Origin: Caldilineae bacterium
GTDB lineage: Bacteria; Chloroflexota; Anaerolineae; DTLA01
Assembly (NCBI GenBank): GCA_037446815.1
Contig: JBBIHX010000002.1
Location: 7,641 to 71,640, forward strand
DNA: 64,000 nt
Reading direction: 5' to 3'
The notes beneath the pieces are model-generated. The model searched no databases. It worked only from the letters and a program-made list of their open reading frames with translations, and had not been told where the DNA came from. The position numbers were made by a program, and so were the translations under genes. This document shows positions 7,428 to 57,694 of this stretch, piece after piece (the first letter of the stretch is position 1; the number at the start of each line of letters is the position of its first letter).

Positions 7428-7530
7428 TGCCATTGCGAGGGCACGGAGCGCCTGAAGCAACCCCTGGGAACTGTCATTCTGAGCGGCGAAGCCGCGAAGA
7501 ATCTAGGCCACCGAGAGGCTTCGCCTACAT
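7428..7530. repeat. Composite/degenerate repeat with a family-A half (cattgcgagggcacggagcgcctgaagcaacc) joined to a family-B half (ctgtcattctgagcggcgaagccgcgaagaatc...ggcttcgcc)
   Basis: Sequence identity to cores of repeats elsewhere in the window. A terminus-like fragment ccaacacaagccgaacc lies at 7568-7585. Confidence 0.6.
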
Positions 7531-7603
7531 CCCAGCATGGCACAGGGAGAAGCAACGTGCGGGCCACCCAACACAAGCCGAACCCGGCTCACGTTCTCTC
7601 AAG

Positions 7604-7751
7604 TCGGTCCCAAAGTCTGTTGGTGGCTGTCATTGCGAGGGCACGCAGTGCCCGAAGCAATCCCCGGGGCGTGGGGTTGCTTCGCTTCGCTCGCAATGAC
7701 ACACGAGGAGAGTGCGCCTACGGTTCCCCAACACAAGATGAAACCGACTCC
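7604..7751 (+). repeat. Family-A palindromic MITE/REP-like element, copy A1
   Basis: tcggtcccaaagtctgttgg...gtcattgcgagggcacgcagtgcccgaagcaatc...ggttgcttcgcttcgctcgcaatgac...ccaacacaagatgaaaccgactcc. Internal inverted repeats; near-identical to copies A2-A5. Confidence 0.85.
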
Positions 7752-7839
7752 TTCCCTCGGCGCGGTTGACGCCGGCGCTGCGCATCCGCTATAATTGCCA
7801 CGACAACCCATCCAAACCCTGCACAAAGGAGGTCTTCCC

Positions 7840-8610
7840 ATGACGCTCAAAGGAAAACGGGTCGCCGTTCTGGCCGAAGAGATGTATCAGGAATTGGAAC
7901 TCTGGTATCCCGCCTTGCGCATGCGCGAGGCCGGCGCCGAGGTCAAAATCATTGGAACAGGCAGCAGCCCCACCTATGCATCCAAGCACGGGTACCCGGT
8001 TACCGTAGACATAGCCGCAGACCAGGTGTCCGTCACCGAGTTTGACGCCGTCATCGTCCCCGGCGGCTATGCCCCCGACCGTATGCGCCGCTACCCTGCC
8101 CTCCTGAAGTTGGTGCGCGAGGCGTTCGAGCAGGGCAAAGTCGTGGCCGCCATCTGCCACGCAGGTTGGGTGTTGGTATCCGCGGGCATCCTCAAAGGTC
8201 GGCGGGTAACCAGCTTCTTCGCGATCAAGGACGATATGATCAACGCCGGCGCGACTTGGGTTGATGAGCCGGTGGTGCGAGACGGCAATCTCATCACATC
8301 CCGCATGCCCGACGACCTGCCCTACTTCTGCAACGCCATCATCCAGGCGTTGGGCGGCGGCGAGGTCAACGCCGAAATTGTAGAGACGACCACGGCCAAA
8401 GAGGCCCTCGCCATCGCAGTCCGCGCGGAGGAGCAGGCCGCCGCCTTCTACAAGGCCGCCGTCCGCCGCACGCGCGACCCCGAGGCCAAAGCCATGTTTG
8501 AGGAACTGGCAAAGGAAGAACTCGCCCACAAAGCGCGCCTGGAGAAAGAGTACGCACACCTCAGCGGCGATCCCAACTGGGCGCGGTACGAACTGTGGGG
8601 CAACCTGTAG
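7840..8610 (+). CDS. DJ-1/PfpI (ThiJ) family domain fused to a C-terminal ferritin/rubrerythrin-like helical domain
   Basis: Nucleophile elbow AICHAGWVL and PGG motif; C-terminal AEEQAAAFY...EELAKEELAHKARLEKEY (one ExxH half-site). RBS aaaggagg precedes ATG 7840. The tool ORF begins at 7795. Confidence 0.8.
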   Translation: MTLKGKRVAVLAEEMYQELELWYPALRMREAGAEVKIIGTGSSPTYASKHGYPVTVDIAADQVSVTEFDAVIVPGGYAPDRMRRYPALLKLVREAFEQGKVVAAICHAGWVLVSAGILKGRRVTSFFAIKDDMINAGATWVDEPVVRDGNLITSRMPDDLPYFCNAIIQALGGGEVNAEIVETTTAKEALAIAVRAEEQAAAFYKAAVRRTRDPEAKAMFEELAKEELAHKARLEKEYAHLSGDPNWARYELWGNL

Positions 8611-8744
8611 GATGCGCATCACATCCGGCATCTGTGGAATCGCAGCGGCTCGCGCTGGGCCCGGCGGGCGAGCACTGCCCCCCGCCCATGAACCCCATCG
8701 CCCGCTGAGGGGTAACTCTCACAGAGCACACGGAGGGTTACGGG

Positions 8745-10468: not shown

Positions 10469-10650
10469 CCCAACGCGCCCCTCCCATCCGCCGCGCATCG
10501 CGTTGCCGCGTTCGCTACGGTGAGTTTCGGCCAGTCTCTTGCCATGCAGGCGCGGAGACGATCCAATCCGACGGCAAGCAACACATCATCCCGGAGCCCC
10601 CGACGCCGCCAGCCAGACCCATCGCAGCGAGGACACCGAAGGAGGCTACA

Positions 10651-11466: not shown

Positions 11467-11492
11467 TTCGGCGCAGAGCGGAGAACGATCAG

Positions 11493-15189: not shown

Positions 15190-15209
15190 GCTCTCACCCG
15201 TGATTGCGA

Positions 15210-16832: not shown

Positions 16833-16833
16833 G

Positions 16834-17506: not shown

Positions 17507-18004
17507 ATGGCCAAACCGACAAAACACGCCGGCACAATCTGCACCATCTTGGGCGTCGTCGCCCTGGTGGGCATCGTGCTTGGAATCCTGCGCTCAAGCC
17601 CGCTAATCACCGTCCTGCTGCTCATCCCGACCGCCGTGTACGAGGTGTACCGCACGGAAGGCGAATCCACCCGCTGGGCATCCTGGGTGCTCCTGCTCGT
17701 CCTCATCGCCGAGGTGGTCCTGGTGGCCGCGGGAATCCAATTTGACCTGGCCGCGTTCCTGGGCGAGGAAGAGCGCTACGTGGCGGGGTACGAGGTGCCC
17801 ATCGGCGACGTGAAGGTGGTCGGGCCGGCCATTATGGCCGTCCTGTCGCTCATTCTCATCGCGCGAACGCGCGGGCGCTACACCAAGTGGCTGGCCGGCA
17901 TCATCCTGGTAACATCCTTCGCCATCGTGTACGCCATAGACCCCACCGTCTTCGCCCGCTGGATTCGCGTGGCCCTTGACCAGGGGCTGAACCTGCTCCG
18001 ATAG
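17507..18004 (+). CDS. Hypothetical small membrane protein (4 predicted TM helices)
   Basis: Hydrophobic composition. RBS aaaggagact precedes the ATG. Confidence 0.55.
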   Translation: MAKPTKHAGTICTILGVVALVGIVLGILRSSPLITVLLLIPTAVYEVYRTEGESTRWASWVLLLVLIAEVVLVAAGIQFDLAAFLGEEERYVAGYEVPIGDVKVVGPAIMAVLSLILIARTRGRYTKWLAGIILVTSFAIVYAIDPTVFARWIRVALDQGLNLLR

Positions 18005-18060
18005 TGTGGCGGCTTTGGCCCAGGGCAGGGGACGCCCAATCGCGCCCAGCGCGAATGGAT

Positions 18061-18208
18061 TCGGTTCCAAAGTCTGTTGGTATTTGTCATTGCGAGGGCG
18101 CGGAGCGCCCGAAGCAATCTCTGGGGCGTGAGGTTGCTTCGCTTCGCTCGCAACGACACACGAGGAGAGTGTCCACGCGTTTCACCAACACAAGATGAAA
18201 CCGACTCC
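18061..18208 (+). repeat. Family-A palindromic MITE/REP-like element, copy A2
   Basis: Same termini and internal hairpins as A1. It lies immediately downstream of gene 17507..18004. Confidence 0.85.
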
Positions 18209-18222
18209 GCGAATGCGGCGAA

Positions 18223-18251
18223 TTGACATTTTCAGCCACCTGCGGTACACT
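18223..18251 (+). promoter_or_regulatory. Putative sigma70-type promoter (-35 TTGACA, 17-nt spacer, -10 TACACT) for the CpXC gene
   Basis: Consensus-like hexamers ~135 nt upstream of ATG 18386. Confidence 0.45.
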
Positions 18252-18385: not shown

Positions 18386-19723
18386 ATGCTGAATCAAGGA
18401 ATCACCCCAGCGACCTGCAGCCGATGTGGCCACCAGTTTGGCGCAACCGCCGAACGCATCCTGGACCTGGAGAAAGACCCAACGGCGAAAACCCGCCTCC
18501 TATCCGGGCGCGTGAACGTGGCGCGGTGTCCCGCCTGTGGGGCCGAAGGTGCGCTGAACCTGCCATTCGTGTATCACGACCGATCCAAGGAGTTGCTTCT
18601 GGCCTACATGCCGCCGTCCTTTGGGGCCAACGAAACCGAACGCCAGCGCGTGCTGGGTGAACTCACCAACGCCGTGATGAACTCGCTGCCGCCCGAGCAC
18701 CGCAAGGCCTACCTCCTCCAGCCCAAGATGTTCTTCACCATGCAGAGCATGGCCGAGACCATTCTCCAGGCCGACGGCGTTACCAAGGAGATGATGGACG
18801 CCCAGCGGGCGCACGTGGACCTCATCAACGAGATGCTCCAGGCCAGAGACCCCTCGGCATTCCAGCAGGTGGTAGATGAGCACCGCGACCAGATTGACTA
18901 CGACTTCTTCCAGACGCTGGCGGCCTCCACGGAAGCAGCCCAGGCCAACGGCCAGGAACGCGTGGCCCAGGTGCTCAACTCGCTGAGCCTTTGGCTCATA
19001 CAAGAATTCGGCCTCCCCGTGGGAGAAGAGATGGCGGGTGAGGGCAGCAAGGGTCTCCTGACCCGCGAGCGACTTGTCTCGCTCCTGGAAAAAGCGGAGG
19101 AAGATGACGATTTCCGTACCCTGGTCAGCCTCGGGCGTCCGCTGATGGATTACACCTTCTTCCAGGAACTCACTGCCCAGATAGAGGCGGCCAAGGCCCT
19201 CGGCGAAGAGGGCCGGGCAAAGCGACTGGAGAACCTGCGCGCGCGAGTCGTGCAGACGGCCGAGGAGATGGAAGCCGCGTCCAAGCAGGTTATCAACCAG
19301 GCCGCATCGCTCCTCAGCGGCGCGCTCCAGGCCGACGATCCCGAAGCCTACATGCGCGAGCATCTGGGCGAGATCAGCGAGGCGTTCTTTGTCGTGTTGA
19401 GCGCGAACCTCAACGCCGCCGAGCGCGAGGGCCAGCAGCAATGGGTGGAGAAGATGGAACGCATCGGCGACATCGCCCTGCGGCTCATCCAGGAGGCGGC
19501 GCCGCCGGAGGTGCAACTGCTCAACCAACTGATGGCAGCGCCGTACCCCGACGGCACGCTCCAGGTCTTGCGGGAGAACGCGGCGCTGGTTACGTCGGAA
19601 CTCCTGGATGCCATGGCAATCATCGCCGACGACCTCGTGCGACAGGGGAACCTACCCGCCGCCGACAAGGTCAAGAAGGTGCTGGCCCAGGCCGAAACGC
19701 TCGCAGCAGACACGAAGGCGTAA
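18386..19723 (+). CDS. CpXC-domain zinc-ribbon protein with long alpha-helical C-terminal region
   Basis: N-terminal CSRCGHQF...CPACG (CxxC/CPxC), then ~380 aa helical repeats. RBS aaagga. Confidence 0.7.
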   Translation: MLNQGITPATCSRCGHQFGATAERILDLEKDPTAKTRLLSGRVNVARCPACGAEGALNLPFVYHDRSKELLLAYMPPSFGANETERQRVLGELTNAVMNSLPPEHRKAYLLQPKMFFTMQSMAETILQADGVTKEMMDAQRAHVDLINEMLQARDPSAFQQVVDEHRDQIDYDFFQTLAASTEAAQANGQERVAQVLNSLSLWLIQEFGLPVGEEMAGEGSKGLLTRERLVSLLEKAEEDDDFRTLVSLGRPLMDYTFFQELTAQIEAAKALGEEGRAKRLENLRARVVQTAEEMEAASKQVINQAASLLSGALQADDPEAYMREHLGEISEAFFVVLSANLNAAEREGQQQWVEKMERIGDIALRLIQEAAPPEVQLLNQLMAAPYPDGTLQVLRENAALVTSELLDAMAIIADDLVRQGNLPAADKVKKVLAQAETLAADTKA

Positions 19724-19748
19724 ATCCGGCGCCCTATCAAGGCGCGAC

Positions 19749-19894
19749 TCGGTTCCAAAGTCTGTTGGCATTTGTCATTGCGAGGGCGCTCCGCGCCCGA
19801 AGCAATCTCTGGGGCGTGAGGTTGCTTCGCTTCGCTCGCAACGACACGCGAGGAGAGTATTCATGCGTTTCACCAACACAAGATGAAACCGACT
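19749..19894 (+). repeat. Family-A palindromic MITE/REP-like element, copy A3
   Basis: Near-identical to A2. It begins 25 nt after the CpXC gene stop. Confidence 0.85.
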
Positions 19895-19907
19895 TAACGC
19901 GCACGGA

Positions 19908-19937
19908 TTGGACAAGCCTGCCGTTTTGTGATATACT
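19908..19937 (+). promoter_or_regulatory. Putative sigma70-type promoter (-35 TTGGAC, 18-nt spacer, -10 TATACT) for the ECF transporter operon
   Basis: Hexamers located by sequence. A ~160-nt leader follows, containing a short hairpin gaccgcaggatcggtc + TTTT at 20033..20052. Confidence 0.45.
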
Positions 19938-20102
19938 GATTCTGCCATCCACCGCACGGGCGGGGGTGAGCCTGAACGCCAAACGAATACTTTCCGCAGA
20001 TCCCAGGCGCTTGGATCCAACGCGACCGAGACGACCGCAGGATCGGTCTTTTCATCGCGGGTTCCCGGCTGCTGGGGCCCGCGATTCGTTTTGTGAGGGA
20101 CG

Positions 20103-21884
20103 ATGGAACCTCTGATACGCGTGGACAACATCCGGTACACGTACCCCGCAGGGACAGGGAAACCTGCCTTGACGGACGTAAGCCTGAGCATTGGCGCGGG
20201 CGAGTACGTCGCCATCGTCGGCGCCAACGGATCGGGCAAGTCCACGCTGGCCCGCCACCTGAACGCGCTGCTCGTCCCCGACCAAGGCGATGTGTGGGTC
20301 AACGGCTGGAACACCCGCGACCGCGCGCACATCCGCGACATCCGCCGCACGGTGGGCATGGTGTTCCAAGTGCCCGACAACCAAATCGTGGCCACAATCG
20401 TAGAGGACGATGTGGCCTTTGGCCCGGAGAACCTCGGCATCCCCGAGGATGAACTGCCCGCCCGCGTGCGGGAGGCCCTGGCGGCAGTCGGGCTGGAAGA
20501 ACACGGGCACCGCGCATCGCATCTCCTCTCCGCGGGGCAGAAGCAACGCCTCGCCATTGCCGCCGCGCTCGCCATGCGCCCCCTGTGCCTGGTGCTAGAC
20601 GAGGCAACGGCCATGCTGGATCCGGCGGGCAAAGCCGACCTCCTGCGCATCGTCCGGCGGCTCCATCGGTCGGGCACAACCATCGTCGCCGTAACCCATT
20701 CCATGAGCGAGGCGCTGGAGGCCGACCGTGTCATCGTCCTCGCGGAAGGGCGCATCGTTATGGACGGCACGCCGGCCCAGGTATTCGCCGACGCTGAGAG
20801 CCTTGAGCGCTATGGGCTGGACGTGCCGCCCGCAGCACGCTTGGCGCACCTCCTGGCGGCCCACTGGCCCGATTTCCCTCGCCATCTGCTTGACGCGGAA
20901 GCGTTGGCGGATGCTGTATGCCGGCATCTCTCCTTGGGCGCGCACGTGCGCACAACCCACCCGCTTGCCGCCACGGACACCGGCGGCCAGCCCGTTCTCC
21001 CGCCCGACGCGAGCGGCCAGGCCCCATACATCGCGCTGGAAGACGTGCACTACACGTACCTAGCAGGCACGCCCCTGGAGACCCGCGCCCTGCGAGGCGT
21101 CTCCATGGACATCCGTCCAGGGGAAACCATCGCGATCATCGGGCCGACCGGCTCCGGCAAATCCACCCTGTTGCAGCACCTGAACGGCCTGCTCCGCCCA
21201 CACGCCGGTCGCGCCCGCGTGCTGGGTGTTGATCTCACCGACCCGCGGGCAGACGTTCGCGCCCTGCGCAGGCGGGTTGGCCTCGTATTCCAGCAGCCCG
21301 AAGCCCAGTTGTTTGAGCGCTACGCCGGCGATGACGTCGCCTTCGGCCCTCTCGCGTTCGGATCATCATTGGAGCAAGCGCGCGAACGGGTTCGCCGAGC
21401 GATGGAGGCCGTCGGCCTGCCGTTTGAGACCTACAAGGACCGCCTGACTCTGACCTTGAGCGGGGGCGAGCGGCGCAGGCTGGCCCTTGCGGGAGTCCTG
21501 GCACTGGAGCCGCAGGTGTTGGTGCTGGACGAGCCGACCGCGGGCCTGGACCCCAGAGGCCGCAACGATCTCCTTGCGCTCCTGCGCCGTTGGCGGGATG
21601 CCGATCGGGCCATCGTCTTCTCTTCGCACAACATGGACGATGTAGCGCTGCTGGCAGACCGAGTGTACATCATCGCGGAGGGACGCATCGCGCACGCGGC
21701 GCCCGTGCGGGAAGCATTTTCTGCGCCGGAGTCCCTTGTGGGGTTCGGCCTGGGGCTGCCCACGGCGATGACGTTCGCCCAAGCCCTGGCGCGCCGCGGT
21801 TGCCCCATCCCCACCGACCTGCTGACGTTGGAAGAACTGGCGCACGCGATTGTGAGGTTGGCCGATGAGCGCATCCGAGTTTGA
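20103..21884 (+). CDS. ECF transporter ATPase, fused EcfA1-EcfA2 (two ABC domains)
   Basis: Two Walker A sites (GANGSGKST, GPTGSGKST) and two signatures (LSAGQKQRL, LSGGERRRL). Confidence 0.9.
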   Translation: MEPLIRVDNIRYTYPAGTGKPALTDVSLSIGAGEYVAIVGANGSGKSTLARHLNALLVPDQGDVWVNGWNTRDRAHIRDIRRTVGMVFQVPDNQIVATIVEDDVAFGPENLGIPEDELPARVREALAAVGLEEHGHRASHLLSAGQKQRLAIAAALAMRPLCLVLDEATAMLDPAGKADLLRIVRRLHRSGTTIVAVTHSMSEALEADRVIVLAEGRIVMDGTPAQVFADAESLERYGLDVPPAARLAHLLAAHWPDFPRHLLDAEALADAVCRHLSLGAHVRTTHPLAATDTGGQPVLPPDASGQAPYIALEDVHYTYLAGTPLETRALRGVSMDIRPGETIAIIGPTGSGKSTLLQHLNGLLRPHAGRARVLGVDLTDPRADVRALRRRVGLVFQQPEAQLFERYAGDDVAFGPLAFGSSLEQARERVRRAMEAVGLPFETYKDRLTLTLSGGERRRLALAGVLALEPQVLVLDEPTAGLDPRGRNDLLALLRRWRDADRAIVFSSHNMDDVALLADRVYIIAEGRIAHAAPVREAFSAPESLVGFGLGLPTAMTFAQALARRGCPIPTDLLTLEELAHAIVRLADERIRV

Positions 21885-24715: not shown

Positions 24716-25405
24716 CTATCCCGCGACCTTCGCGGCGAGCACAATCTCCACCGGCAAGCCCCACATGGAGGCGCGCTCGGCCTGCACTGCGGCGAAGCCC
24801 GCCGCTTCCAGGACTTCCCGCACGTAAATCGGCCGGCAATCTATCCAGCGCGGCCAGCGACGGTGCGCCCACTTATACAGCCGCACCATGCGGCCGCTTC
24901 CCTTATGCGACAGGCCAACAACACCGAGGCGGCCATTGGCGCGAAGCACACGGGCGCACTCCGACAAGACGGCGGGAATGTCCGGGACATCAAACAACTC
25001 CAGCGTGAAGGCCATGAAGATAGCATCAAACGTCCCTTCGCTGAAGGGCAGCGCCACCGCATCGGCCATGGTCAGGAGCGATCGCCGAGCCAACCCCGCC
25101 CGCTTCATCCGCACCTGCGCCGCGGCCAACATGCCCTCGGCGATGTCCAGCCCCACCGCCAACCCCGACTGGCCCACCGCCTCCGCAATCGCGGCCAGGG
25201 CGTAACCCGTGCCGCAACCGATTTCCAGCGCACGCTGACCCTCCCGCAGCGATAGCAAACGCACGCCCATGTCCACAAACCGCCGCTCGGAGCGCGCCAG
25301 CGCATCGTACCAGCGACTCATGCGGTTGTAGGCGGCCCTCGCCGCGTGCCTGGGCCGATTGACCGGACTTATCACCCCGCGCATCGTTCTCCGCCTCGGC
25401 GTCAT
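24716..25405 (-). CDS. Class I SAM-dependent methyltransferase (UbiE/COQ5-like)
   Basis: SAM-binding motif LEIGCGTGY and post-I/II motifs. The start may be the downstream Met MRGVISP. Confidence 0.8.
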   Translation of the reverse strand: MTPRRRTMRGVISPVNRPRHAARAAYNRMSRWYDALARSERRFVDMGVRLLSLREGQRALEIGCGTGYALAAIAEAVGQSGLAVGLDIAEGMLAAAQVRMKRAGLARRSLLTMADAVALPFSEGTFDAIFMAFTLELFDVPDIPAVLSECARVLRANGRLGVVGLSHKGSGRMVRLYKWAHRRWPRWIDCRPIYVREVLEAAGFAAVQAERASMWGLPVEIVLAAKVAG

Positions 25406-25463
25406 CTTGCAACGCCATGCTACACGGCTAGGCGCGAAGCGTCAACCCAGCCCCTCGTTAGAT

Positions 25464-25608
25464 TCGGTTCCGCCTTGTGTTGGTCTGTCCCTCGCACCGC
25501 CTCTCTACTCTGTCATGCTGAGCCGGAGGCGAAGCATCTCGGCCAGCGGGATTCTTCGCTCTCCGCCGCTCAGAATGACAGTAGATGCCAACAGACTTTG
25601 GAACCGAG
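25464..25608 (+). repeat. Repeat with family-A termini (ttcggttccgccttgtgttgg ... ccaacagactttggaaccga) but a family-B-like internal palindrome (gtcatgctgagccggaggcgaagcatc / gattcttcgc...gctcagaatgac)
   Basis: Direct sequence comparison with the other copies. Confidence 0.7.
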
Positions 25609-25682
25609 CCGGAAAGGCGCAGGATTTGTAACCGCTCTGTAACTGCGTTGTGCTATCATAAAATCGCGGTTCGGAGGGAACG

Positions 25683-40179: not shown

Positions 40180-40252
40180 GCCGAGGTAGCTCAGTTGGAA
40201 GAGCACATCACTGAAAATGATGGGGTCCCCAGTTCAAATCTGGGCTTCGGCA
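40180..40252 (+). tRNA. tRNA-Phe (anticodon GAA)
   Basis: Cloverleaf folded by hand: acceptor GCCGAGG/CTTCGGC, anticodon loop CTGAAAA, T-arm GGTCC/GGGCT. Confidence 0.85.
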
Positions 40253-40257
40253 CCTGG

Positions 40258-40329
40258 GCGGAAGTGGCTCAGCGGTAGAGCATCTCCTTGCCAAGGAGAG
40301 GGTCGCGGGTTCAAATCCCGTCTTCCGCT
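40258..40329 (+). tRNA. tRNA-Gly (anticodon GCC)
   Basis: Acceptor GCGGAAG/CTTCCGC, anticodon loop TTGCCAA. Confidence 0.85.
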
Positions 40330-40344
40330 CCTTTTATTGTCCAG

Positions 40345-40418
40345 GGCGACGTAGCCAAGTGGCAAGGCAGGGGTCTGCAAAACCCCGATCGCGGGTTCAA
40401 GTCCCGCCGTCGCCTCCA
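40345..40418 (+). tRNA. tRNA-Cys (anticodon GCA), CCA encoded
   Basis: Acceptor GGCGACG/CGTCGCC, anticodon loop CTGCAAA, 3' TCCA. Confidence 0.85.
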
Positions 40419-40480
40419 AAAGGCTGTCATTCCGGTGGCAGCCTTTGTTTTTCGCCCCCAAGCATCCCCAACATGACGAC

Positions 40481-40727
40481 TCGGTTCCAAAGCCCGCCGG
40501 CGCCTGCTGTCATTCTGAGCGGCGAAGCCGCGAAGAGTCTCGCGCCCCCGATTCGCGCAATCCGTAGTATCCGTGGATTCCGTTTCCCCATTCCCGTATT
40601 TCGTGCCATTTGCGGTTACTGCTGTTATTCCGAGCGGCGAAGCCGCGAAGAGTCTCGCCCCTCACCCCAGCCCTCTCCCGAAGGGCGAGGGCGTATCGCC
40701 TTCGGCTCAGCATGACAAGACGCAACC
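40481..40727. repeat. tRNA-adjacent composite repeat: family-A-type terminus (tcggttccaaagcc) followed by two family-B cores (tgtcattctgagcggcgaagccgcgaagagtctcgc; tgttattccgagcggcgaagccgcgaagagtctcgcc) and an inverted partner (gccttcggctcagcatgacaag)
   Basis: Sequence comparison with the elements at 7471-7525 and 25464-25608. ORFs predicted here (40359..40715 etc.) are considered spurious. Confidence 0.65.
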
Positions 40728-40806
40728 AAATCAACATGACCCGCGTCATGGTCTTCCTCCCCGCACCCTGCTATACTTGTGCAAAATCCATTGGAGGAGG
40801 AATCCC

Positions 40807-41268
40807 ATGAGCAATATGCCTCAACCCGGCGAGGTCGCGCCGGACTTTGAACTCCCATCAGACAGCGGCCAGAGCGTTCGCCTCTCCGATTTCCGGGGCA
40901 AGAAGGTCGTCCTGTACTTCTACCCGAAGGACATGACCTCAGGCTGCACGAAGGAAGCGTGTTCCTTCAGGGACAACTACCCCCAATACGAGGAAGAAGG
41001 CGCGGTCATCCTCGGCGTCAGCCCCGACCCGCCCCAAAGCCATGTGCGCTTCAAGAGCACGTACAACCTGCCCTTCGTCCTCCTGTCCGACGAAGACCAC
41101 AAGGTCGCCGAAGCCTATGGCGTCTGGGGCGAAAAGCAGATGTACGGTCGCTCCTACTACGGCGTACTCCGAACCACCTTCGTTATCGGTGAGGATGGGA
41201 GAATCGCCAAGGTCTTCGCCAAGGTGAAACCCGACGGCCACGGGGAAGAGGTGCTGGAAGCGTTGTGA
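40807..41268 (+). CDS. bcp: Peroxiredoxin Bcp/PrxQ
   Basis: Peroxidatic Cys in PKDMTSGCTKEAC context. RBS ggaggagg. The tool ORF starts at 40573, inside the repeat. Confidence 0.85.
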   Translation: MSNMPQPGEVAPDFELPSDSGQSVRLSDFRGKKVVLYFYPKDMTSGCTKEACSFRDNYPQYEEEGAVILGVSPDPPQSHVRFKSTYNLPFVLLSDEDHKVAEAYGVWGEKQMYGRSYYGVLRTTFVIGEDGRIAKVFAKVKPDGHGEEVLEAL

Positions 41269-45699: not shown

Positions 45700-45730
45700 G
45701 CCGGCCGAGCCGTGGTGGTGCGAGGCCATC

Positions 45731-46930
45731 TCATGCCTGCTTCAGCGCACGGGCGAACCGCGCCCCGAATTCCTCCGCGGCGGCCAAATCCTCCCGCGTC
45801 GGCCCGCCGCGGAATTCCAGCGTCTCCACCAGTTCCCACTTGAGCGGGGTGATGAGATCGGTCAGTTCCTTTTGCGCGCCGCCGCTCCAGCCATAACTCC
45901 CGAACCACGCCGCTTTCTTGTTCAGGACCCGCTTGCGCGCCGCGATGTCCAGCAGGTGCGCCATCGGGGGGAACAACCCCACTTCATACGTCGGCGCGCC
46001 CATCATCACGCCCGACTTGGTCCACAGAGAAGGCAGAATGTAACTGTAGTGGGTGCGCGCAACATCAAAGACCCCTATCGGCACGTCCTCGCGCGAAATG
46101 CCCTGGGCCACGGCGTTCATCATCTTTTCCGTGTTCCCGTACATTGAGCCATACACCAACGTAACGCCCGGCTCCGCTGGCTCTGTCGCATAGCGCGCCC
46201 ACTGGGCGTACAGGTCCACGATGCGCTGCGGAGACTTGCGCCAAATGAGCCCATGGGACGGCGCAATCACCTCCACAGGCGTTGACTGCAGTTTCTTGAT
46301 GGCGCGGAGCACAGGGCCGCTGAACTTCGCCACGATGTTCACGTAGTACCGCAGCGCCTCGCGCTCGTAGAAACTCATGTCCACGCACTGGTCATCAAAG
46401 ATCGCGCCGCGAAGCGCGCCGTAACCGCCGAAAGCGTCGCCCGAGAAAAGCACCTTCTCGCCCTGGTCGTAGGTCATCATCGTCTCCGGCCAGTGCACGA
46501 AGGGCGTGGAAAAGAACTGCAGCGTATGGCGGCCCAAGTCAAGCGTGTCTCCATCTTGCACCACGCGGACCGTTTCGGCATCCCCGTAGAACGCCCCCAG
46601 CAATTCCTTCGTCTTCTCCGTGCCGAGAATCGTCGCGCGGGGCGCCAATCGGCGGAAGAGCGTCAGCAGCCCCGAGTGGTCCGGCTCAATGTGATTGACG
46701 ACGATGTAGTCAATCGCGTCCAGTTCGGCCAACTCGGCAACCTGGCCAAGAAACTCATCGGCTTTGAATGCCTTGGCCAGGTCTATCAGGGCAACCTTCT
46801 CATCCCGGATGAGATACGCATTGTAGGAAACGCCGGTCTGGTCAATGGGCCAGAGACCTTCAAACAGGTCAGTGGTCCTGTCATTGACGCCAATCCAGTA
46901 GATGTCGGGGCGAACTTGCACAACGCTCAT
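45731..46930 (-). CDS. Flavodiiron protein (metallo-beta-lactamase-like diiron domain + flavodoxin domain)
   Basis: HxExDH-type diiron motif (NHIEPDHSG), C-terminal flavodoxin (VYGSMYGNTEK). The start is at MSVVQV (ORF codon 34) with RBS aggagg. Confidence 0.85.
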   Translation of the reverse strand: MSVVQVRPDIYWIGVNDRTTDLFEGLWPIDQTGVSYNAYLIRDEKVALIDLAKAFKADEFLGQVAELAELDAIDYIVVNHIEPDHSGLLTLFRRLAPRATILGTEKTKELLGAFYGDAETVRVVQDGDTLDLGRHTLQFFSTPFVHWPETMMTYDQGEKVLFSGDAFGGYGALRGAIFDDQCVDMSFYEREALRYYVNIVAKFSGPVLRAIKKLQSTPVEVIAPSHGLIWRKSPQRIVDLYAQWARYATEPAEPGVTLVYGSMYGNTEKMMNAVAQGISREDVPIGVFDVARTHYSYILPSLWTKSGVMMGAPTYEVGLFPPMAHLLDIAARKRVLNKKAAWFGSYGWSGGAQKELTDLITPLKWELVETLEFRGGPTREDLAAAEEFGARFARALKQA

Positions 46931-47070
46931 GACGTTACCTCCTGATGCGATGCCTTCTCGTTCCACCGCACATGATACCCCACCTATGCGAGTTTTGCAA
47001 AGCCCATTCACACGGAACTGAAACCGCACCCGTGCCGTTCACCAACACAGCCCCGAATCACGCCCTGGAC

Positions 47071-47216
47071 TCGGTTCCAAACTGTGTTGGTGAAACGCAG
47101 ACACACTCTCCTCACGTGTCATTGCGAGCGAAGCGAAGCAATCGCACGTCCCGGAGATTGCTTCGGGCGCTCCGCGCCCTCGCAATGACAGCCACCAACA
47201 GACTTTGGAACCGAAC
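47071..47216 (-). repeat. Family-A palindromic element, copy A4 (inverted relative to A1-A3)
   Basis: tcggttccaaactgtgttggtgaa...gtcattgcgagcgaagcgaagcaatc...gattgcttcgggcgctccgcgccctcgcaatgac...ccaacagactttggaaccga. Confidence 0.85.
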
Positions 47217-47327
47217 CACGCCCTGCACGCCTTTGACAAAGGGCCGTCCGGATAGTAGAATGCGTCCAGATGGCCCATCTGCCGGGACTCGGCCCGATGG
47301 CCATCCCGACAACTCCGGAGATCTTCT

Positions 47328-48326
47328 GTGATTGCCAATCATGCGGAGAGCACGCTTCACGTCTTTGTTGAGGTGCGGCCCCCTCACGCCATGGGGCGTG
47401 GCGCACCGCCGCTCCTCGCCAATGCCCGCCACCGCGCCGCACTACGGATGGCCCAAGCGGCCCAGGCGTGCGGCGCCCGCGCGGCACTGCTGAACGGAGG
47501 CCGCCGATTCTCTCGTGCGGCGGCGCATGGGAATGCCCTCTGGGTCCGATGGGGCGGGGGAGCGTTGCTGGACGGCGAGGCCATACGCCGCTTGGGTTCC
47601 GCCGCGAGCGACGGCTGCATCTGGGGCAACCGTACCCCCAACGCGGACCTGTGGGCGTTTCCGGCGCGGACATGGCCGCAGCCCGGCAGCGCGCCGCAGA
47701 GATTCTTCCCGCCCTCTGCCGCAACGATGTTCCGCCTTGCCACCGCCGCAGACCTCTGCCTGCTCGCCGCGCTGGGCCCGCACGAACTGGCGCGCGATGC
47801 TGGGCGCGTCGCAGCTCCCGCCGTACTCCACAACATCCGCGCCGCTACGCGCCTGTTGACCCGTCGCACCGCCGAACTGGTTGTCGTAGGAGACACAGGC
47901 GCCGACGGATGGCATCACCTGGAGCAAGAGACCGCTTGCCGCGTTCGGCTTCTGGGCGATGCGCGCGGCGGATTGCTCGCCCATCTGCTCGCATCGGTGG
48001 GAGCCGAGCGTTTCGTCCGCTACCTATCCGAACTGGGCCAGGCACTCCTGGTCAACACCCGCATCCTGTTCGGAGAATCCGCCCCACCAACGCCGCGCGA
48101 CTTCTTCTACTCGGACATGGGGCTGACCGAGCGCATCGCCCATCGCGGGCTACGGGCGCTCACCGAAGCGCTGATTGGCGGCGACCGGCCAGCCATCCTG
48201 GGCGGCCAAAGCCTGCTCACGGGCGGCGTGTACCTGCTGATAGAACGCGCGTGGGAGGGCGAGGAATTGCCACGGCAGTACGAAACCCTCGCCATGCCCT
48301 CCGCCAAGCAAACCACAAAGGAGTGA
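47328..48326 (+). CDS. Hypothetical protein, possibly translationally coupled to the downstream SHMT-GcvT gene
   Basis: 332-aa ORF with a GTG start. It ends 5 nt before the 48331 start. No recognisable motif; coding status is uncertain. Confidence 0.4.
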   Translation: MIANHAESTLHVFVEVRPPHAMGRGAPPLLANARHRAALRMAQAAQACGARAALLNGGRRFSRAAAHGNALWVRWGGGALLDGEAIRRLGSAASDGCIWGNRTPNADLWAFPARTWPQPGSAPQRFFPPSAATMFRLATAADLCLLAALGPHELARDAGRVAAPAVLHNIRAATRLLTRRTAELVVVGDTGADGWHHLEQETACRVRLLGDARGGLLAHLLASVGAERFVRYLSELGQALLVNTRILFGESAPPTPRDFFYSDMGLTERIAHRGLRALTEALIGGDRPAILGGQSLLTGGVYLLIERAWEGEELPRQYETLAMPSAKQTTKE

Positions 48327-48330
48327 GGAA

Positions 48331-51936: not shown

Positions 51937-51969
51937 CACACCCCATACAGCCGCACGCAAGCCACACAC

Positions 51970-52007
51970 AAGGCAAGGGAGAGGCCTGCGCGCCTCTCCC
52001 TTGCCTT
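51970..52007. terminator. 15-bp perfect hairpin (AAGGCAAGGGAGAGG-N8-CCTCTCCCTTGCCTT) between convergent operons; candidate bidirectional terminator
   Basis: Seen directly. It lies between the fusion gene stop (51936) and the minus-strand gene stop (52033). Confidence 0.6.
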
Positions 52008-52032
52008 GTTCAGCGCCGAATTCGCACGGGTC

Positions 52033-53172: not shown

Positions 53173-53201
53173 CGGTATCCCCTTCCCCTCAAAGGTCTCT
53201 C

Positions 53202-54659: not shown

Positions 54660-55993
54660 CAACTCACCTCCTTGAGCGCCCGAACCAGCGTATCAATCTC
54701 CAGGCGCGAGTTCCGCTCCGTAACGCACACCAGCATGTGATTCGCCATCTCCGGATAGTCGCGGCCCAGGTCATACCCGCCGATGATATCCCGTTCCAGC
54801 AATGCCTCGTTCATCTCGGCGACCGGCTTAGGACATCTGACCACGAACTCCCTGAAGAAGGGCTTTGTCGTTACGACCTCGTAGTGGCGGAGTTTGGAGA
54901 TTTCCCTGGCCAGGTAGTGCGCTTTGTGATAGCAGATTTCGGCGAGTTGGCGAAGCCCGCATTTGCCCAACGCGGCCAGATACACCGCCGCCGCCAGTGC
55001 ATTCAGCGCCTCGTTGCTGCAGATGTTGGACGTGGCGCGCTCGCGGCGAATGTGCTGCTCCCGGGCCGAGAGGGTCAGCACAAACCCGCGCTTCCCCTCC
55101 GCATCCACCGTCTCGCCGACAAGTCGCCCGGCCATCTTGTGCACGTACTGCTCTCGCGTGGCGAAGAAGCCGAGGTAGGGACCACCGAAACTTAGCGGAT
55201 TGCCCAGCGGCTGGCCCTCGCCTACGACGATGTCGGCCCCGTAATCGCCCGGCGCCTTGAACAGCCCTAAGGCGATGGGATCGGCCACGACCACCCACAA
55301 CGCGCCTTTGTCGTGCACGTGCTCGGCTATCCCCCGGAAGTCCTCCAACTCACCCAGGAAGTTGGGGAACTGGGTAACAAAGCAGGCGGTCTCCTCGTCA
55401 ACCAGGCTTAGGAGCGATTGCGCATCCTGTCGCGTGTCGTCGCCCACGATCTCCAGGTCAAGCCCCTGCACATAGGTGCGCGTCGTCGCCCGATACTCCG
55501 GGTGCACGAACGGGGACATCACCACCTTGTTGCGCTTCTTCCGCAGCACGTTGTACGCCATCACAACGGCCTCGGCCACGGCGGTCGCCCCATCGTAGTG
55601 CGAAGCGTTGGCGACCTCCATGCCGGTCAGCGCGCAGATCATGCTCTGGTACTCAAAGATCGCCTGCAGCGTGCCCTGGCTAATCTCCGGCTGGTACGGC
55701 GTGTAGGCGGTATAGAACTCGGAGCGACTGACGATGTGGTCCACAACGCTAGGAATGAAGTGCCTATAGGCGCCCGCGCCCAGGAAGCACATATAATCGT
55801 TGACATTCGCATTGTTATCGCTGGCAAATCGGAAATGCTCCAGCAATGTCTGTTCGTCAAGCGGAGGGGGAAACTTAAACTTAGGGTAAAGCACCTTGGC
55901 CGGCACATCGGCGAAGAGGTTCTTGATGTGCTTCACCCCGATGGCGTCCAGCATGGCGGCGCGGTCGGCGTCGCTGTGGGGAATGTACGGCAT
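54659..55993 (-). CDS. gcvPA: Glycine dehydrogenase (decarboxylating) subunit 1
   Basis: GcvPA family conservation (MPYIPHSD...). Confidence 0.9.
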
Positions 55994-56394
55994 TAGTGCC
56001 CTCCCTTCTTGGCCTCCTCGGCGAGGAACTTCGCATAAGCGTCGGCGTCCAGCAGGGACTTGGCCTCATCCGGATCGCTCACCTTGATGCGCACGAACCA
56101 GCCCTTGCCGTAGGGGTCCTCGTTCACCAGTTGTGGCGAGTCCTCCAACTCCTTGTTGACCGCGATGATCTCGCCGCTCAGGGGGAGATACACGTCCGAC
56201 GCGGCCTTCACCGACTCCACCGTGCCGAACACATCGCCCTGGGCGAAGGTGTCGCCGACCTCGGGAAGTTCCACATAGACCACGTCGTTCAGTTCCTCCT
56301 GGGCGAAATCCGAGATGCCCACCACGGCCTCGTCGCCCTCTAGCCGCACCCACTCGTGGCTCTCCATGTACAACAGTCCTTGCTCTACTTTCAT
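55993..56394 (-). CDS. gcvH: Glycine cleavage system H protein
   Basis: Lipoyl-lysine motif ESVKAASD; 133 aa. Confidence 0.9.
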   Translation of the reverse strand: MKVEQGLLYMESHEWVRLEGDEAVVGISDFAQEELNDVVYVELPEVGDTFAQGDVFGTVESVKAASDVYLPLSGEIIAVNKELEDSPQLVNEDPYGKGWFVRIKVSDPDEAKSLLDADAYAKFLAEEAKKGGH

Positions 56395-56431
56395 CTTTGC
56401 GCCTCCTTGTGAACGATATGTTCGTATGGGT

Positions 56432-57463
56432 CTAGAAAAACACCTGCGCCAGGCGATACAAGTCCAGGTCTACCTGGCGGATACCCGCCTTCAGAACGCT
56501 CAAGGGCACCGGCTCAATCTTGTTCCCGTGCAAGGCGGTCATCTGCCCGAAGCGCCCCTCACGGATCAAATCCACGGCGCCAACGCCCATACGCGTGGCC
56601 ATCACGCGGTCAAAGACGGTGGGCGTGCCGCCGCGCTGCAAGTGCCCCACCACCACGAACCGCGCCTCAAACTGGGCGCACGTCTCAATGCCCTGGGCCA
56701 CCGCCTCGCCGATGCCCCGCATGTCCATGCGCGGCCGGCCAAACGAATCGGGCGGGCCGGGCTCCAACGTGTTCGGCAAGTCCGACAGGCGCGCCCCCTC
56801 CGCCACCACGATGATGCTGTGATGTTTGCCCGCTTCCGCTCGGCGGCGCAGGTGCTCGCAGATCTCGGCAACGCTGGTGGGGACCTCAGGGATGACGATG
56901 AAATCCGCCCCGCCTGCCAGGCCACCCACCGTGGCCAGCCAGCCCGCCTCGCGGCCCATCACCTCCACCACAATGGCCCGACTGTGCGCGCTAGCGGTCG
57001 TGTGCAACTTATCCAGGGCCTCGGCAATCGTCGCCACAGCCGAGTCAAACCCAATGCACTGGTCGGTGCCTGGCACGTTGTTGTCAATCGTCTTGGGGAT
57101 TCCAACCAGCGGCGCATCATGCTCTTCGTACAGTTTCTGCGCGATGCCTAGCGTGTCAATCCCGCCGATAACGACGACGGCGTCCAGGCCATGCGCTTTG
57201 ATGGTGTTCAGCACCTTTTGGACCCCGTCGGGCACGGCAAATACATTCGTCCTCGTCGCGCCGAGAATCGTGCCGCCCGTGTGCATAATGCCCGAAACCG
57301 AATAGCGGGTGAACTCGGTTACTTGATCTTCCAGCAAACCGAGCCAGCCGTTCTGGATGCCGCACACCTGATACCCGTACTGGAACGCGCGTCGGGCCAC
57401 CGCACGGATGGCCGCATTGAGGCCGGGAGCGTCTCCTCCCCCCGTAAGCACTCCGATACGCAC
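56432..57463 (-). CDS. pfk: 6-phosphofructokinase (ATP- or PPi-dependent not resolved)
   Basis: GGDAPGLNA and MGR motifs. The start is placed at the internal GTG (VRIGVLTGGG, ORF codon 41) preceded by a ggagg RBS. The tool ORF extends to 57583 into repeat A5. Confidence 0.8.
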   Translation of the reverse strand: MRIGVLTGGGDAPGLNAAIRAVARRAFQYGYQVCGIQNGWLGLLEDQVTEFTRYSVSGIMHTGGTILGATRTNVFAVPDGVQKVLNTIKAHGLDAVVVIGGIDTLGIAQKLYEEHDAPLVGIPKTIDNNVPGTDQCIGFDSAVATIAEALDKLHTTASAHSRAIVVEVMGREAGWLATVGGLAGGADFIVIPEVPTSVAEICEHLRRRAEAGKHHSIIVVAEGARLSDLPNTLEPGPPDSFGRPRMDMRGIGEAVAQGIETCAQFEARFVVVGHLQRGGTPTVFDRVMATRMGVGAVDLIREGRFGQMTALHGNKIEPVPLSVLKAGIRQVDLDLYRLAQVFF

Positions 57464-57547
57464 CTCACACCTCCGTTGACGCAAATTGCCTTCACGAAGC
57501 AGTATAGCACAAACTGCGGCGCAGGGAAAGACCCTTTCGGGCAGGAG

Positions 57548-57694
57548 TCGGTTTGATCTTGTGTTGGTGAACCGTAGACGCACTCTCCTCGTGTGTCATT
57601 GCGAGCGAAGCGAAGCAATCCCACGCCCCGGAGATTGCTTCGGGCACTGCGTGCCCTCGCAATGACGGGTACCAACAGACTTTGGAACCGACTC
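57548..57694 (-). repeat. Family-A palindromic element, copy A5 (inverted)
   Basis: tcggtttgatcttgtgttggtgaa...gtcattgcgagcgaagcgaagcaatc...gattgcttcgggcactgcgtgccctcgcaatgac...ccaacagactttggaaccgactc. It lies between pfk and the DUF362 gene. Confidence 0.85.

Follow-up and report, generated by a model that had tools for sequence, protein, structure and literature searches.

Bacterial MITEs such as Correia/NEMIS, RUP, ERIC, Nezha and MITEAba12 are non-coding, intergenic elements of 70–300 bp with terminal inverted repeats (TIRs) and a target-site duplication (TSD) of fixed length; they show insertion polymorphism, form hairpins and depend on the transposase of a cognate insertion sequence for mobilisation in trans (PMC10969869). 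The repeats described here share these features, mobilisation in trans being probable, and as a class they are ordinary. They differ in their parent, an insertion sequence of the Mutator/IS256 superfamily; IS256 is absent from the main text of that 2024 review (PMC10969869). A further difference from known MITEs is that a second, independent class of repeat makes up the interior. Correia-type MITEs carry a promoter on the element, whereas here a host promoter lies outside it at a fixed 15-nt distance.

Integration directed to promoters is known from eukaryotes: Ty3 and Ty1 insert at Pol III genes, Tf1 at Pol II promoters and Mutator at gene 5' ends. Such insertions cluster narrowly at a set distance upstream of the transcription start machinery, repeatedly at the same spot, and leave the gene intact; TFIIIB, AC40 and Sap1 are known tethers. 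The present case concerns a bacterium, where the candidate machinery would be the sigma-70 holoenzyme, and the analogy is one of behaviour only.

The window is the whole 64,000-nt stretch of Caldilineae bacterium DNA that was analysed. Repeat search, MAFFT and nhmmer (E ~1e-50) recovered five copies of 150 bp with pairwise identities of 82.7–94% (c1–c5, Table 1), exactly those listed in a preliminary description of the sequence. Of the shared termini it gave, one had 7 matches and the other 5 when ≤3 mismatches were allowed, where shuffled sequence would yield 0.04 and 0.01, and its intergenic placement of all copies was upheld by GC3 frame analysis and Pfam. Among its three relatives, the one at 25464-25608 is a complete element with both termini (c6). 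The one at 40481-40727 is in fact the 255-bp composite c7, whose termini are degenerate (left 15/25, right 18/25) and whose interior contains an inverted half-module besides two B-type modules. The third, at 7428-7530, belongs to a partial element at 7422-7590 in which no clear left terminus was recognisable; a right-terminus-like CCAACACAAGCCGAACCCGG sits at 7568-7587 and extends to ~7590. Copy c1 was inserted later than this partial element, landing between it and the DJ-1 promoter. Degenerate terminus-like debris was also seen near c4, at about 47000-47059. The spurious ORFs blamed on the repeats are present (7557..7769, 18004..18198, 57492..57707), as are the over-extended 5' ends of pfk (ORF 56432..57583, whose true start lies near 57463) and of the TPR-kinase ORF (3059..7576, the kinase domain beginning ~20 aa after 7255).

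Table 1. Elements, flanking duplications and promoters in the window, with the full-length insertion sequences from other Chloroflexota. Coordinates of c1–c5 include the full termini.
Feature	Position	Strand	Remarks
MITE copy c1 (150 bp)	7601-7750	+	repeat search, MAFFT, nhmmer
MITE copy c2 (150 bp)	18058-18207	+	perfect TSD
MITE copy c3 (150 bp)	19746-19895	+	repeat search, nhmmer; TSD decayed
MITE copy c4 (150 bp)	47068-47217	-	perfect TSD
MITE copy c5 (150 bp)	57545-57694	-	perfect TSD
MITE relative c6 (150 bp)	25461-25610	-	both termini, interior of B-type hairpin modules; nhmmer E=1e-12, full length
Composite MITE relative c7 (255 bp)	40478-40732	+	degenerate termini, perfect TSD
Older partial element	7422-7590	+	hairpin modules A+B, right-terminus-like end; nhmmer
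c1 flanking 8-mers GTTCTCTC, CTTCCCTC	7593-7600, 7751-7758		6/8 match
c2 TSD CGCGAATG	18050-18057, 18208-18215		8/8
c4 TSD CAGGGCGT	47218-47225, 47060-47067		8/8
c5 TSD CTGCCCGA	57695-57702, 57537-57544		8/8
c7 TSD AACATGAC	40470-40477, 40733-40740		8/8
Promoter-like TTGACG-18-TATAAT, 11/12	7766-7795	+	upstream of DJ-1/PfpI-rubrerythrin gene 7840-8610; 15 nt from c1 right end
Promoter TTGACA-17-TACACT	18223-18251	+	upstream of CpXC gene 18386-19723; scan, conserved in relatives
Promoter TGGACA-17-TATACT	19909-19937	+	upstream of ECF-transporter operon; scan, conserved in relatives
Promoter-like TTGACG-17-TAGCAT	25417-25445	-	upstream of methyltransferase 24716-25384; 15 nt from c6 right end
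Promoter-like, weak -35 ATGGTC, 18-nt spacer, TATACT	40748-40777	+	upstream of Bcp peroxiredoxin 40807-41268; below scan threshold
Promoter-like TTGACA-17-TAGAAT	47233-47261	+	upstream of ORF 47328-48326; 15 nt from c4 left end
Promoter-like, weak -35 TTTCCC, 17-nt spacer, TATACT, 8/12	57501-57529	-	upstream of pfk 56432-57463; 15 nt from c5 right end
Full-length insertion sequences	L011 3231-4771; L020, L021, L023, L024, L032, L038, L173		same termini

The elements end in 25-bp imperfect TIRs (GAcTCGGTTCCAAAGTCTGTTGGTG), and the TIR consensus GAcTCGGTTCCAnnnTnTGTTGGTG was found at both ends. The TSD is 8 bp long and perfect in four of the seven window copies; no TSD was found at the flanks of c6 (0/8 match). 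Outside the window, duplications matching at 8/8 positions flank L003, L005, L010, L023, L024, L025b and L027, and 7/8 matches flank L006a, L006b and L012. Relatives with a syntenic CpXC orthologue of 84–88% amino acid identity (L013, L018, L050, L051) have the same gene order and are empty at the sites of c2 and c3, and the termini are absent from all four across the ~20 kb of synteny spanning c2, c3 and c6. At the site of c6 the relatives carry hairpin modules without termini, L013 a single one and L018 about five. Both presence/absence polymorphism and target-site duplications, which the preliminary description proposed to look for, were seen. Together with full-length insertion sequences bearing the same termini, the TIRs, TSDs and empty sites bear out its suggestion of a non-autonomous element. 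Its wording "recently active" found no support: the copies differ by 6–17% and the duplications of c3 and c6 are lost, so that the burst was not very recent, and a transposase homologue sought in the window was not found.

These results also bear on another reading, in which the unit has one conserved function, either as a gene for a structured non-coding RNA or as a cis-regulatory leader. The palindromic fold is strong (z -3 to -6) and compensatory changes were seen at two base pairs when the five copies were compared, as such a gene might show; covariation among the copies was, however, mostly no better than in shuffled controls, and an Rfam match was absent even at E≤10. The unit carries TSDs, it is missing from the relatives of 84–88% identity, which have kept the adjoining promoters and leaders, and it lies upstream of the adjacent promoters, which thus do not transcribe it. 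We give this explanation hardly any credence.

Full-length insertion sequences with termini of the identical type occur in other Chloroflexota; they measure 1523–1557 bp and represent 7 independent assemblies or metagenomes. At its left end the insertion sequence in L011 is identical to c3 over 23 nt and to the MITE in L026 over 30 nt. The same termini also bound MITEs with unrelated interiors (L003, L010, L012, L026, L027). We concluded that this ~1.5-kb parent is widespread in Chloroflexota and that the MITEs are its internally deleted or rebuilt, non-coding forms. The encoded transposase (427–430 aa) is a DDE enzyme of the Mutator/IS256 superfamily with an N-terminal Zn-finger and matched Pfam PF00872 above gathering in all six proteins tested. 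Resemblance to IS256 and ISH6 extends to a single ORF, a length of ~1.5 kb, imperfect inverted repeats of ~25 bp, the 8-bp duplication, PF00872 and the N-terminal 4-Cys Zn domain of the "IS256 variant" type. The top NCBIfam matches were ISH6, IS256 and the IS256_N_4Cys Zn domain. In contrast to those families, the transposase falls far below the NCBIfam equivalog cut-offs (33 versus 150 bits for IS256, 46 versus 240 for ISH6), so that placement in a named family is loose, and it forms a small, compact, separate clade (400 clusters at 50% identity). More than 1400 homologues were found, mostly on ~1.5-kb contigs, and none with a solved structure.

The interior has another origin. Two hairpin modules with a TGTC/CGTC tag (GTCATTGCGAG-hairpin-GAAGCAATC) are joined tail to tail as a dimer, so that the whole element becomes one long palindrome; the module motif GTCATTSYGAG gave 17 matches against 3.6 expected, all inside the listed elements. 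The predicted fold is a long rod with paired termini and, further in, an 11-bp stem around two hairpins, in agreement with the double hairpin predicted earlier, and the z-scores were -3.1 (RNA, + strand), -6.2 (RNA, - strand) and -3.5 (DNA). Both in relatives and in other phyla, modules free of the termini are also found, either alone or as arrays. The class was seen in Alphaproteobacteria, Firmicutes and viral contigs, with 167 matches in at least 120 viral contigs (31–72% GC), the preceding base being T or C in 160 of the 167, which fits the CGTC/TGTC tag; the same dimer architecture occurs in Novosphingobium and at 11 places in a Vescimonas replicon. It is a separate, cosmopolitan REP-like class not derived from the insertion sequence. 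Its closest described counterpart is the CGTC-tagged REP superfamily (Di Nocera et al. 2013, PMC3733652; Neisseria dRS3, Rickettsia RPE), with likeness limited to the modules: a TGTC/CGTC tag at one end, a stem starting with A-T and T-A pairs, and dimers and clusters in several phyla with no transposase attached. The stem here has 5 bp, a GA/GA(A) internal loop, 5–6 bp and a 3–4-nt loop, whereas 8–9 bp and a 4–5-nt loop are described there; the tail is not CCA, the tail-to-tail dimers are rare in that superfamily, and the five phyla given for CGTC repeats include neither Chloroflexi nor Firmicutes (PMC3733652).

The tagged hairpins, their termini-free arrays in relatives and their GCGAAGC-type mini-hairpin core, a motif unusually stable as single-stranded DNA (PMC13037366), are what would be expected if the whole 150-bp unit were a REP/BIME-type palindrome spread by a RAYT/IS200-like tyrosine transposase or by recombination, with a role in termination or stabilisation. 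The unit, however, has 25-bp TIRs and 8-bp duplications, its termini bound an insertion sequence with a DDE transposase, and they recur around unrelated interiors. To our knowledge REPs have neither TIRs nor TSDs, so the REP-like label used in the preliminary description is wrong for the whole element and apt for its interior palindromes. Neither U-tracts after the hairpins nor terminator-like sites were found within the elements, which speaks against the termination or mRNA-stability role it had suggested. We regard the REP/BIME explanation as very improbable.

Promoters were taken as consensus matches; in the flank counts a promoter-like site was a ≥9/12 match within 40 nt of an element end. 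Their fixed distance from the elements had gone unremarked in the preliminary description. In six of the seven window copies (c1, c2, c4 at its left end, c5, c6, c7), and in L025b, the element end lies exactly 15 nt (the 8-bp duplication plus 7) from a sigma-70-type -35; in the exception, c3, the right end is 12–13 nt from TTGGAC/TGGACA. The chance of six of seven sharing one gap value among 33 is P ~2e-7. Promoter-like sites occurred on 14 of the 40 flanks of 20 insertions (right ends 10/20, left ends 4/20), against a rate of 2.9% per flank expected from the intergenic DNA of the window (binomial p ~3e-12), and an independent scan listed the same promoters. At the two comparable sites, those of c2 and c3, the promoters are kept in the MITE-free L013, L018 and L050 and thus predate the insertions. 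The adjacency is not universal: L024 is located within an Rhs/YD gene, L027 follows a stop codon and precedes the next ribosome-binding site, and no promoter-like site was found near L026 or L006.

Could purifying selection alone have produced this position, random insertions into a compact genome surviving only in the few neutral bases that separate the end of one gene from the following -35? Intergenic spacers in the relatives are indeed very short (13 nt from stop codon to -35 at site 2 in L013; the stop codon abuts the -35 at site 3 in L050), the insertions in L024 and L027 lie within genes or operons, and the bias of right ends towards the promoter was not significant (9 versus 3, p=0.15). 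Selection, however, predicts a minimum gap and not the single value of 15 nt, which is also kept in the roomy divergent regions around c1, c4 and c6, and promoter offsets in background intergenic DNA were uniform over 0–40 nt. One position also seems to have been used repeatedly: c1 separates an older element from the same promoter, and in the metagenomic tandem pair L025 two MITEs with different left halves have one common 8-bp target. We consider selection alone a real possibility, with somewhat less than an even chance of being right.

The constant spacing could instead be functional, the MITEs having been exapted as promoter-upstream modules (for instance sites bound by a global regulator, read-through insulators or UP-like elements). 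Three downstream genes belong to oxidative stress (DJ-1/rubrerythrin, flavodiiron protein, Bcp), and at co-directional sites the element separates the end of the upstream gene from the next promoter. The other downstream genes (CpXC, ECF transporter, pfk, methyltransferase) are unrelated, though, and the same promoters run in relatives without the element. In other lineages the same closeness to promoters is seen for full-length insertion sequences and for MITEs whose interiors are unrelated, which points to the insertion process and not to a host function of the interior. Exaptation is in our judgement unlikely.

Taken together, the repeats are very probably MITEs of a Mutator/IS256-superfamily insertion sequence that contain a REP-like interior and are sited just upstream of pre-existing host promoters. 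A transposase acting in trans, encoded at another place in the genome or since lost, would bind the termini and integrate the element through an 8-bp staggered cut, perhaps by a copy-out/paste-in circle route by analogy with IS256; the interior may have been acquired by capture, nested insertion or conversion. Placement next to promoters would then reflect a target preference of the transposition machinery. We know of no report that IS256 or ISH6 choose their targets by position relative to promoters. The spacing to host promoters is the unexpected feature of this family; it hints at promoter-guided insertion, and on the sequence evidence active promoter-proximal targeting by the transposition machinery is plausible.

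Repeat detection, alignment and profile search of the window recovered all five copies of the preliminary description, c1 to c5, and no further full-length ones. Each copy was 150 bp long once its termini were complete, and pairwise identity among the five was 82.7-94%. The two terminal motifs reported earlier matched 7 and 5 times at up to 3 mismatches, with 0.04 and 0.01 matches expected, and 17 of 17 window matches to the internal motif GTCATTSYGAG fell within the listed elements. The three proposed relatives proved uneven: one (c6) was a full-length element with both termini, the composite c7 had a degenerate right terminus, and an older partial element had a right-terminus-like end only. 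All elements were intergenic, and the false ORFs that had been attributed to them were found again, as were the pfk and kinase starts placed too far upstream. Six-frame translation of the elements gave only palindrome-derived peptides broken by stops, and the ORFs spanning them are over-extensions. The GC content of the window is 61-67%, and its protein matches assign it to Anaerolineae within Chloroflexota. A protein database search with the MITE-encoded pseudo-peptide, done to harvest more copies, returned a single irrelevant match, and a scan of viral contigs returned no match to either terminus.

Coordinates of the elements and of neighbouring features, counted from the start of the window unless a relative is named
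Feature	Position	Strand	Remarks
Older partial element	7422-7590		right-terminus-like end only
c1	7601-7750	+	150 bp, complete termini
Promoter-like site	7766		independent consensus scan
DJ-1/PfpI-rubrerythrin fusion gene	7840-8610
c2	18058-18207	+	150 bp, complete termini
Promoter-like site	18223		independent consensus scan
c3	19746-19895	+	150 bp, complete termini
Promoter-like site	19909		independent consensus scan
ECF-transporter operon leader	19943-20100	+
Terminator-like hairpin and T-run	20054-20085		end of ECF leader
ECF ATPase gene	20103-21884		CbiQ and S-component genes follow
Promoter-like site	25445	-	independent consensus scan
c6	25461-25610	-	150-bp relative, both termini present
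Direct repeat TGTAAC-N5-TGTAAC	25626-25645	+
Alpha/beta-hydrolase gene	25683-26606
tRNA-Phe/Gly/Cys cluster	40180-40446	+	range includes the strong terminator-like hairpin that follows the cluster, 40419-40446
c7	40478-40732		255-bp composite; right terminus degenerate; flanking 8-bp duplication perfect
Bcp peroxiredoxin gene	40807-41268
Flavodiiron protein gene	45731-46930
Degenerate terminus-like stretches	46985-47067	-	between c4 and flavodiiron-protein promoter
c4	47068-47217	-	150 bp, complete termini
Promoter-like site	47233		independent consensus scan
c5	57545-57694	-	150 bp, complete termini
Single module in relative L013	20270-20320		orthologue of window 25400-25680
Module array in relative L018	18060-18400		orthologue of window 25400-25680

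The elements are bounded by imperfect terminal inverted repeats (TIRs) of 25 bp, with the consensus GAcTCGGTTCCAaatTnTGTTGGTg over 40 ends. With the boundaries set at GAnTCGG...CCGAnTC for reading the flanking 8-mers, the target-site duplication (TSD) had a fixed length of 8 bp. It was perfect in four window copies (c2 CGCGAATG, c4 CAGGGCGT, c5 CTGCCCGA, c7 AACATGAC), agreed at 6/8 positions for c1 and was decayed at c3 and c6. Outside the window it was perfect in seven elements and 7/8 in three more; the short elements L003, L005, L010 and L027 showed 8/8, and L006a, L006b and L012 showed 7/8. The genome-collection scan with the left terminus gave at least 12 matches, and a gapped metagenome scan gave 3 loci. 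Among the matches listed for the genome collection, the left terminus was found as the same end of 21-25 nt in MAGs of Chloroflexia, Anaerolineae and Caldilineae, where it bounds short elements with wholly different interiors.

The CpXC gene between c2 and c3 has orthologues of 84-88% identity on syntenic contigs. In four syntenic relatives (L013, L018, L050, L051) the element was missing from sites 2 and 3, the insertion places of c2 and c3, and the empty sites keep the promoter and leader sequences. No termini were found across approx. 20 kb of synteny in the relatives. The comparison thus bore out presence/absence polymorphism, and the elements have the anatomy of DDE-type non-autonomous transposons. 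The earlier proposal of a non-autonomous MITE is supported by the TIRs, the 8-bp TSDs, the empty sites and an insertion sequence (IS) with the same termini elsewhere. By every sequence criterion testable here the elements are MITEs, and we are highly confident both that the original observation is confirmed and that its MITE interpretation is supported. Divergence of 6-17%, together with the decayed duplications at c3 and c6, argues for a transposition burst that was not very recent.

No transposase gene was detected in the 64-kb window by tblastn with the partner transposase. The partner was found elsewhere: L011 is a 1541-bp IS with termini as in the window MITEs and a single ORF. Seven full copies beyond L011 were obtained via homologues of its transposase and have the same ends, which gives eight full IS with MITE termini (L011, L020, L021, L023, L024, L032, L038, L173), measuring 1523-1557 bp and carrying one ORF of 427-430 aa. 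L023 and L024 have perfect 8-bp TSDs. The ends of the window MITEs match the IS ends side for side, left to left and right to right, and the first 30 nt are common to the MITE L026 and the L011 IS. For the L011 transposase over 1400 homologues of 427-430 aa were found, most of them on contigs of approx. 1.5 kb, a pattern typical of an IS that breaks assemblies because it is present in many copies. Among the metagenomic IS contigs L028-L047 many are chimeric assemblies whose left and right flanks do not match, and these were used qualitatively.

The partner IS has the format of the IS256 family (1.2-1.5 kb, single ORF, TIRs, 8-9-bp duplication). Pfam PF00872 (Mutator-type DDE) scored above gathering in 6/6 proteins (23.6-33.7 bits, cut-off 21). 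The best NCBIfam matches of the transposase were ISH6 and IS256, and its N-terminal 4-Cys domain is of IS256 type. The IS256 equivalog NF033543 reached 33.3 bits against a cut-off of 150, and the ISH6 model NF041731 45.9 bits against a cut-off of 240. Because these curated thresholds were failed we use the label 'IS256-like' and assign the IS to neither family. The transposase clade is small and separate, and by the NCBIfam criterion the protein is a divergent lineage of the Mutator/IS256 superfamily outside both named families. No solved structure of the transposase or a relative was found. ISfinder may already name this IS. Transposition of IS256 is established to proceed by copy-out/paste-in through a circular intermediate (see also PMC3299598). 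We infer that a transposase of the L011 type would bind the 25-bp ends and mobilise the MITE in trans, and that the MITE would likewise be copied out and pasted in via a circle, integrating with an 8-bp stagger.

Between the termini the interior reads TGTC-ATTGCGAG-[GGGCGC..GCGCCC]-GAAGCAATC ... GGTTGCTTC-GCTTCGC-TCGCAAT-GACA. It is made of two hairpin modules placed tail to tail, so that the whole element is a rod-like palindrome. Each module has a 5-bp stem (ATTGC/GCAAT or ATTCT/AGAAT), a GA/GA(A) internal loop, a variable stem of 5-6 bp and a loop of 3-4 nt; its tag is TGTCATT in c1-c4 and CGTCATT in c5, and its tail is C(T/C)C. GCGAAGC, the core of an unusually stable DNA mini-hairpin (PMC13037366), is frequent within the modules. 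The preliminary description had also considered a role in termination, for which no support was found: the elements contain neither U-tracts nor terminator-like sites. A structured RNA is likewise disfavoured: the element is missing at orthologous loci, no Rfam match was obtained at gathering or at E<=10, and covariation support for an RNA structure was negligible.

The modules also occur without the termini. At site 6, the methyltransferase/hydrolase spacer into which c6 is inserted, L013 has one module and L018 an array of approx. 5, in which A and B type modules alternate with a unit of approx. 122 bp; neither relative has termini there. A single module, an array or a terminus-bounded MITE at one and the same spacer shows rapid turnover of REP-like modules. 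The same dimer was found in a Novosphingobium replicon (CGTCATTGCGAGG..GAAGCAATCC...GGATTGCTTCGCTGCGCTCGCAATGACG), and the module-A stretch of the query matched at 11 places in a Vescimonas replicon; the plasmid loci with the module are L048 and L049. The pattern GTCATTGCGAG-N8-24-GAAGCAATC gave at least 167 matches in at least 120 IMG/VR contigs (L053-L172, 31-72% GC), where a rough estimate of the chance expectation is a handful. T or C precedes the module in 160/167 of the viral-contig matches listed. Some of these contigs have 4-6 copies on one strand, and tandem and inverted pairs occur. Judged from these matches the hairpin module is cosmopolitan, in several phyla and in phages.

REPs of the CGTC-tagged superfamily have a CGTC/TGTC tag and stems that start with A-T, form dimers or clusters and lack a dedicated transposase (Di Nocera et al., PMC3733652). 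The defining tag is CGTC (or TGTC/CCTC), followed by a stem opening with A-T, T-A (PMC3733652); the modules share such a tag and stem, and they occur alone, as singletons, dimers and clusters without TIRs or TSDs. In contrast to the modules, that class has a stem of 8-9 bp, a loop of 4-5 nt and a CCA-like tail (PMC3733652). The modules thus resemble the CGTC-tagged superfamily and seem to fit it, but none of its four described families. They differ from the GTAG REP/RAYT system in their tag, which is TGTC/CGTC and not GTAG. A literature full-text search with the module sequences found unrelated primers only. The term 'REP-like' used in the preliminary description therefore holds for the interior modules but not for the 150-bp unit as a whole. 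Since MITEs of the same IS family have non-REP interiors (L003, L010, L012, L026, L027), the REP dimer of the window subfamily is either a passenger or was acquired later.

A sigma-70-type promoter-like site was found downstream of nearly every window copy. In the independent consensus scan 12 sites were detected in 18.7 kb and 6 in 18 kb, with approx. 3 expected per region. The gap between the element end and the -35 was exactly 15 nt for c1, c2, c5, c6, c7 and the left end of c4, consisting of the 8-bp duplication and 7 non-conserved nt; for c3 it was 12-13 nt. The gap was likewise 15 nt at L025b, a metagenomic copy of the window's subfamily. Considering all loci, a promoter-like site of at least 9/12 was present within 40 nt at 10 right and 4 left flanks of 20 well-bounded insertions, with an expected rate per flank of 2.9% at uniform offsets over the intergenic positions of the window (p ~3e-12); the sample of insertion sites is small, approx. 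20 well-bounded elements plus the flanks of chimeric IS contigs. In other subfamilies and in the full IS the gap was 4-10 nt, which brings the duplication up against the -35 or into it: for example, in L010 AGAATTTG is followed by ACA, in L023 GATTTATT by TGACA and in L003 GTCCTTCG by TTGACG. Exceptions were L024, which lies inside an Rhs-type gene, L027 in an operon spacer and L026 without a nearby promoter. A rule for orientation, with the right end facing the promoter, was rejected: it held 6 to 1 in the window but 9 to 3 overall (not significant, p=0.15).

One explanation would be that the element itself carries the promoter. This was rejected, because MITE-free relatives conserve the promoters of both site 2 and site 3, the 7 nt between duplication and -35 vary among the copies, and the duplication lies between element and promoter. 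We concluded that the promoter is host DNA.

A second alternative is selection, in that a compact genome spares only insertions upstream of promoters. Selection accounts for the adjacency to promoters, but it poorly explains a single sharp gap value or repeated insertions at one spot. In L025 (minus strand, approx. 4180-4500) two tandem MITEs of the window's subfamily are accompanied by three copies of the 8-bp target TCAAACC(C/G), before, between and after them; after a further 7 nt comes TTGACT-17-TATAAT. The two elements agree fully in the right half but not in the left, where the inner hairpin stem differs as well, so the pair has the appearance of two separate insertions at a single target. 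In the window, c1 sits between the older element and the DJ-1 promoter.

We also consider, tentatively and at somewhat less than even probability, that the promoter guides the choice of insertion site, either because holoenzyme bound there is contacted or because the -35 sequence is recognised. On this view the sigma-70 holoenzyme, or the -35 itself, would set the position of the transpososome, which would make the 8-bp staggered cut 7-15 bp upstream of the -35. At c5 (TTTCCC) and c7 (ATGGTC) the -35 is poor and the -10 good, yet the 15-nt spacing is kept, which points weakly to the promoter complex, rather than the TTGAC sequence, as what is recognised; the poor hexamers could, however, have decayed after insertion. 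Promoter-referenced insertion would be a bacterial counterpart of the promoter-tethered integration of Ty3 type.

Several features of the neighbouring loci were also recorded. The DNA that separates c4 from the flavodiiron-protein promoter contains GATTCGGGGCTGTGTTGGTGAAC and CGGTTTCAGTTCCGTGTGAATGG, which resemble degenerate termini and are probably what older insertions in one promoter-upstream zone have left behind. The leader of the ECF-transporter operon is almost invariant in comparison with relatives at 84-88% aa identity and matched the Rfam pan motif RF01749 weakly but over its full length (20.3 bits, gathering 36.2, E 0.22). We regard it as a candidate leader of riboswitch type; it may be a diverged pan motif before a vitamin transporter. 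The -10-like TATCAT of the alpha/beta-hydrolase gene is closely preceded by the direct repeat TGTAAC-N5-TGTAAC; since this repeat is conserved in relatives, it is likely a transcription-factor site. c7 is located directly 3' of the hairpin that follows the tRNA cluster, ahead of the bcp promoter. Oxidative-stress genes, coding for the DJ-1/PfpI-rubrerythrin fusion, Bcp peroxiredoxin and the flavodiiron protein, follow three of the MITE-adjacent promoters, which may be coincidence with seven sites only.

The MITE class is known and the family is ordinary in this respect; its novelty lies in the REP-dimer interior and most of all in the fixed spacing close to promoters, a pattern that is unexpected. 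A review of MITEs in prokaryotes from 2024 (PMC10969869) does not mention IS256 in its main text, and a full-text literature search for IS targeting close to the -35 returned hybrid-promoter cases only and no precedent. The MITE family accounts for false ORFs and for gene starts set too far 5' in Anaerolineae annotations, and a defined 25-bp terminus with a candidate transposase is now supplied for an IS lineage of Chloroflexota that has received little study. It also shows REP-like hairpins of a cosmopolitan class carried inside a DDE-type MITE. If the 15-nt spacing reflects targeting, it would be an unusual bacterial case of promoter-referenced transposition, which would let the element multiply without disrupting genes. 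Each copy would then also mark a promoter in uncultured Chloroflexota and in genomes without transcriptomic data.
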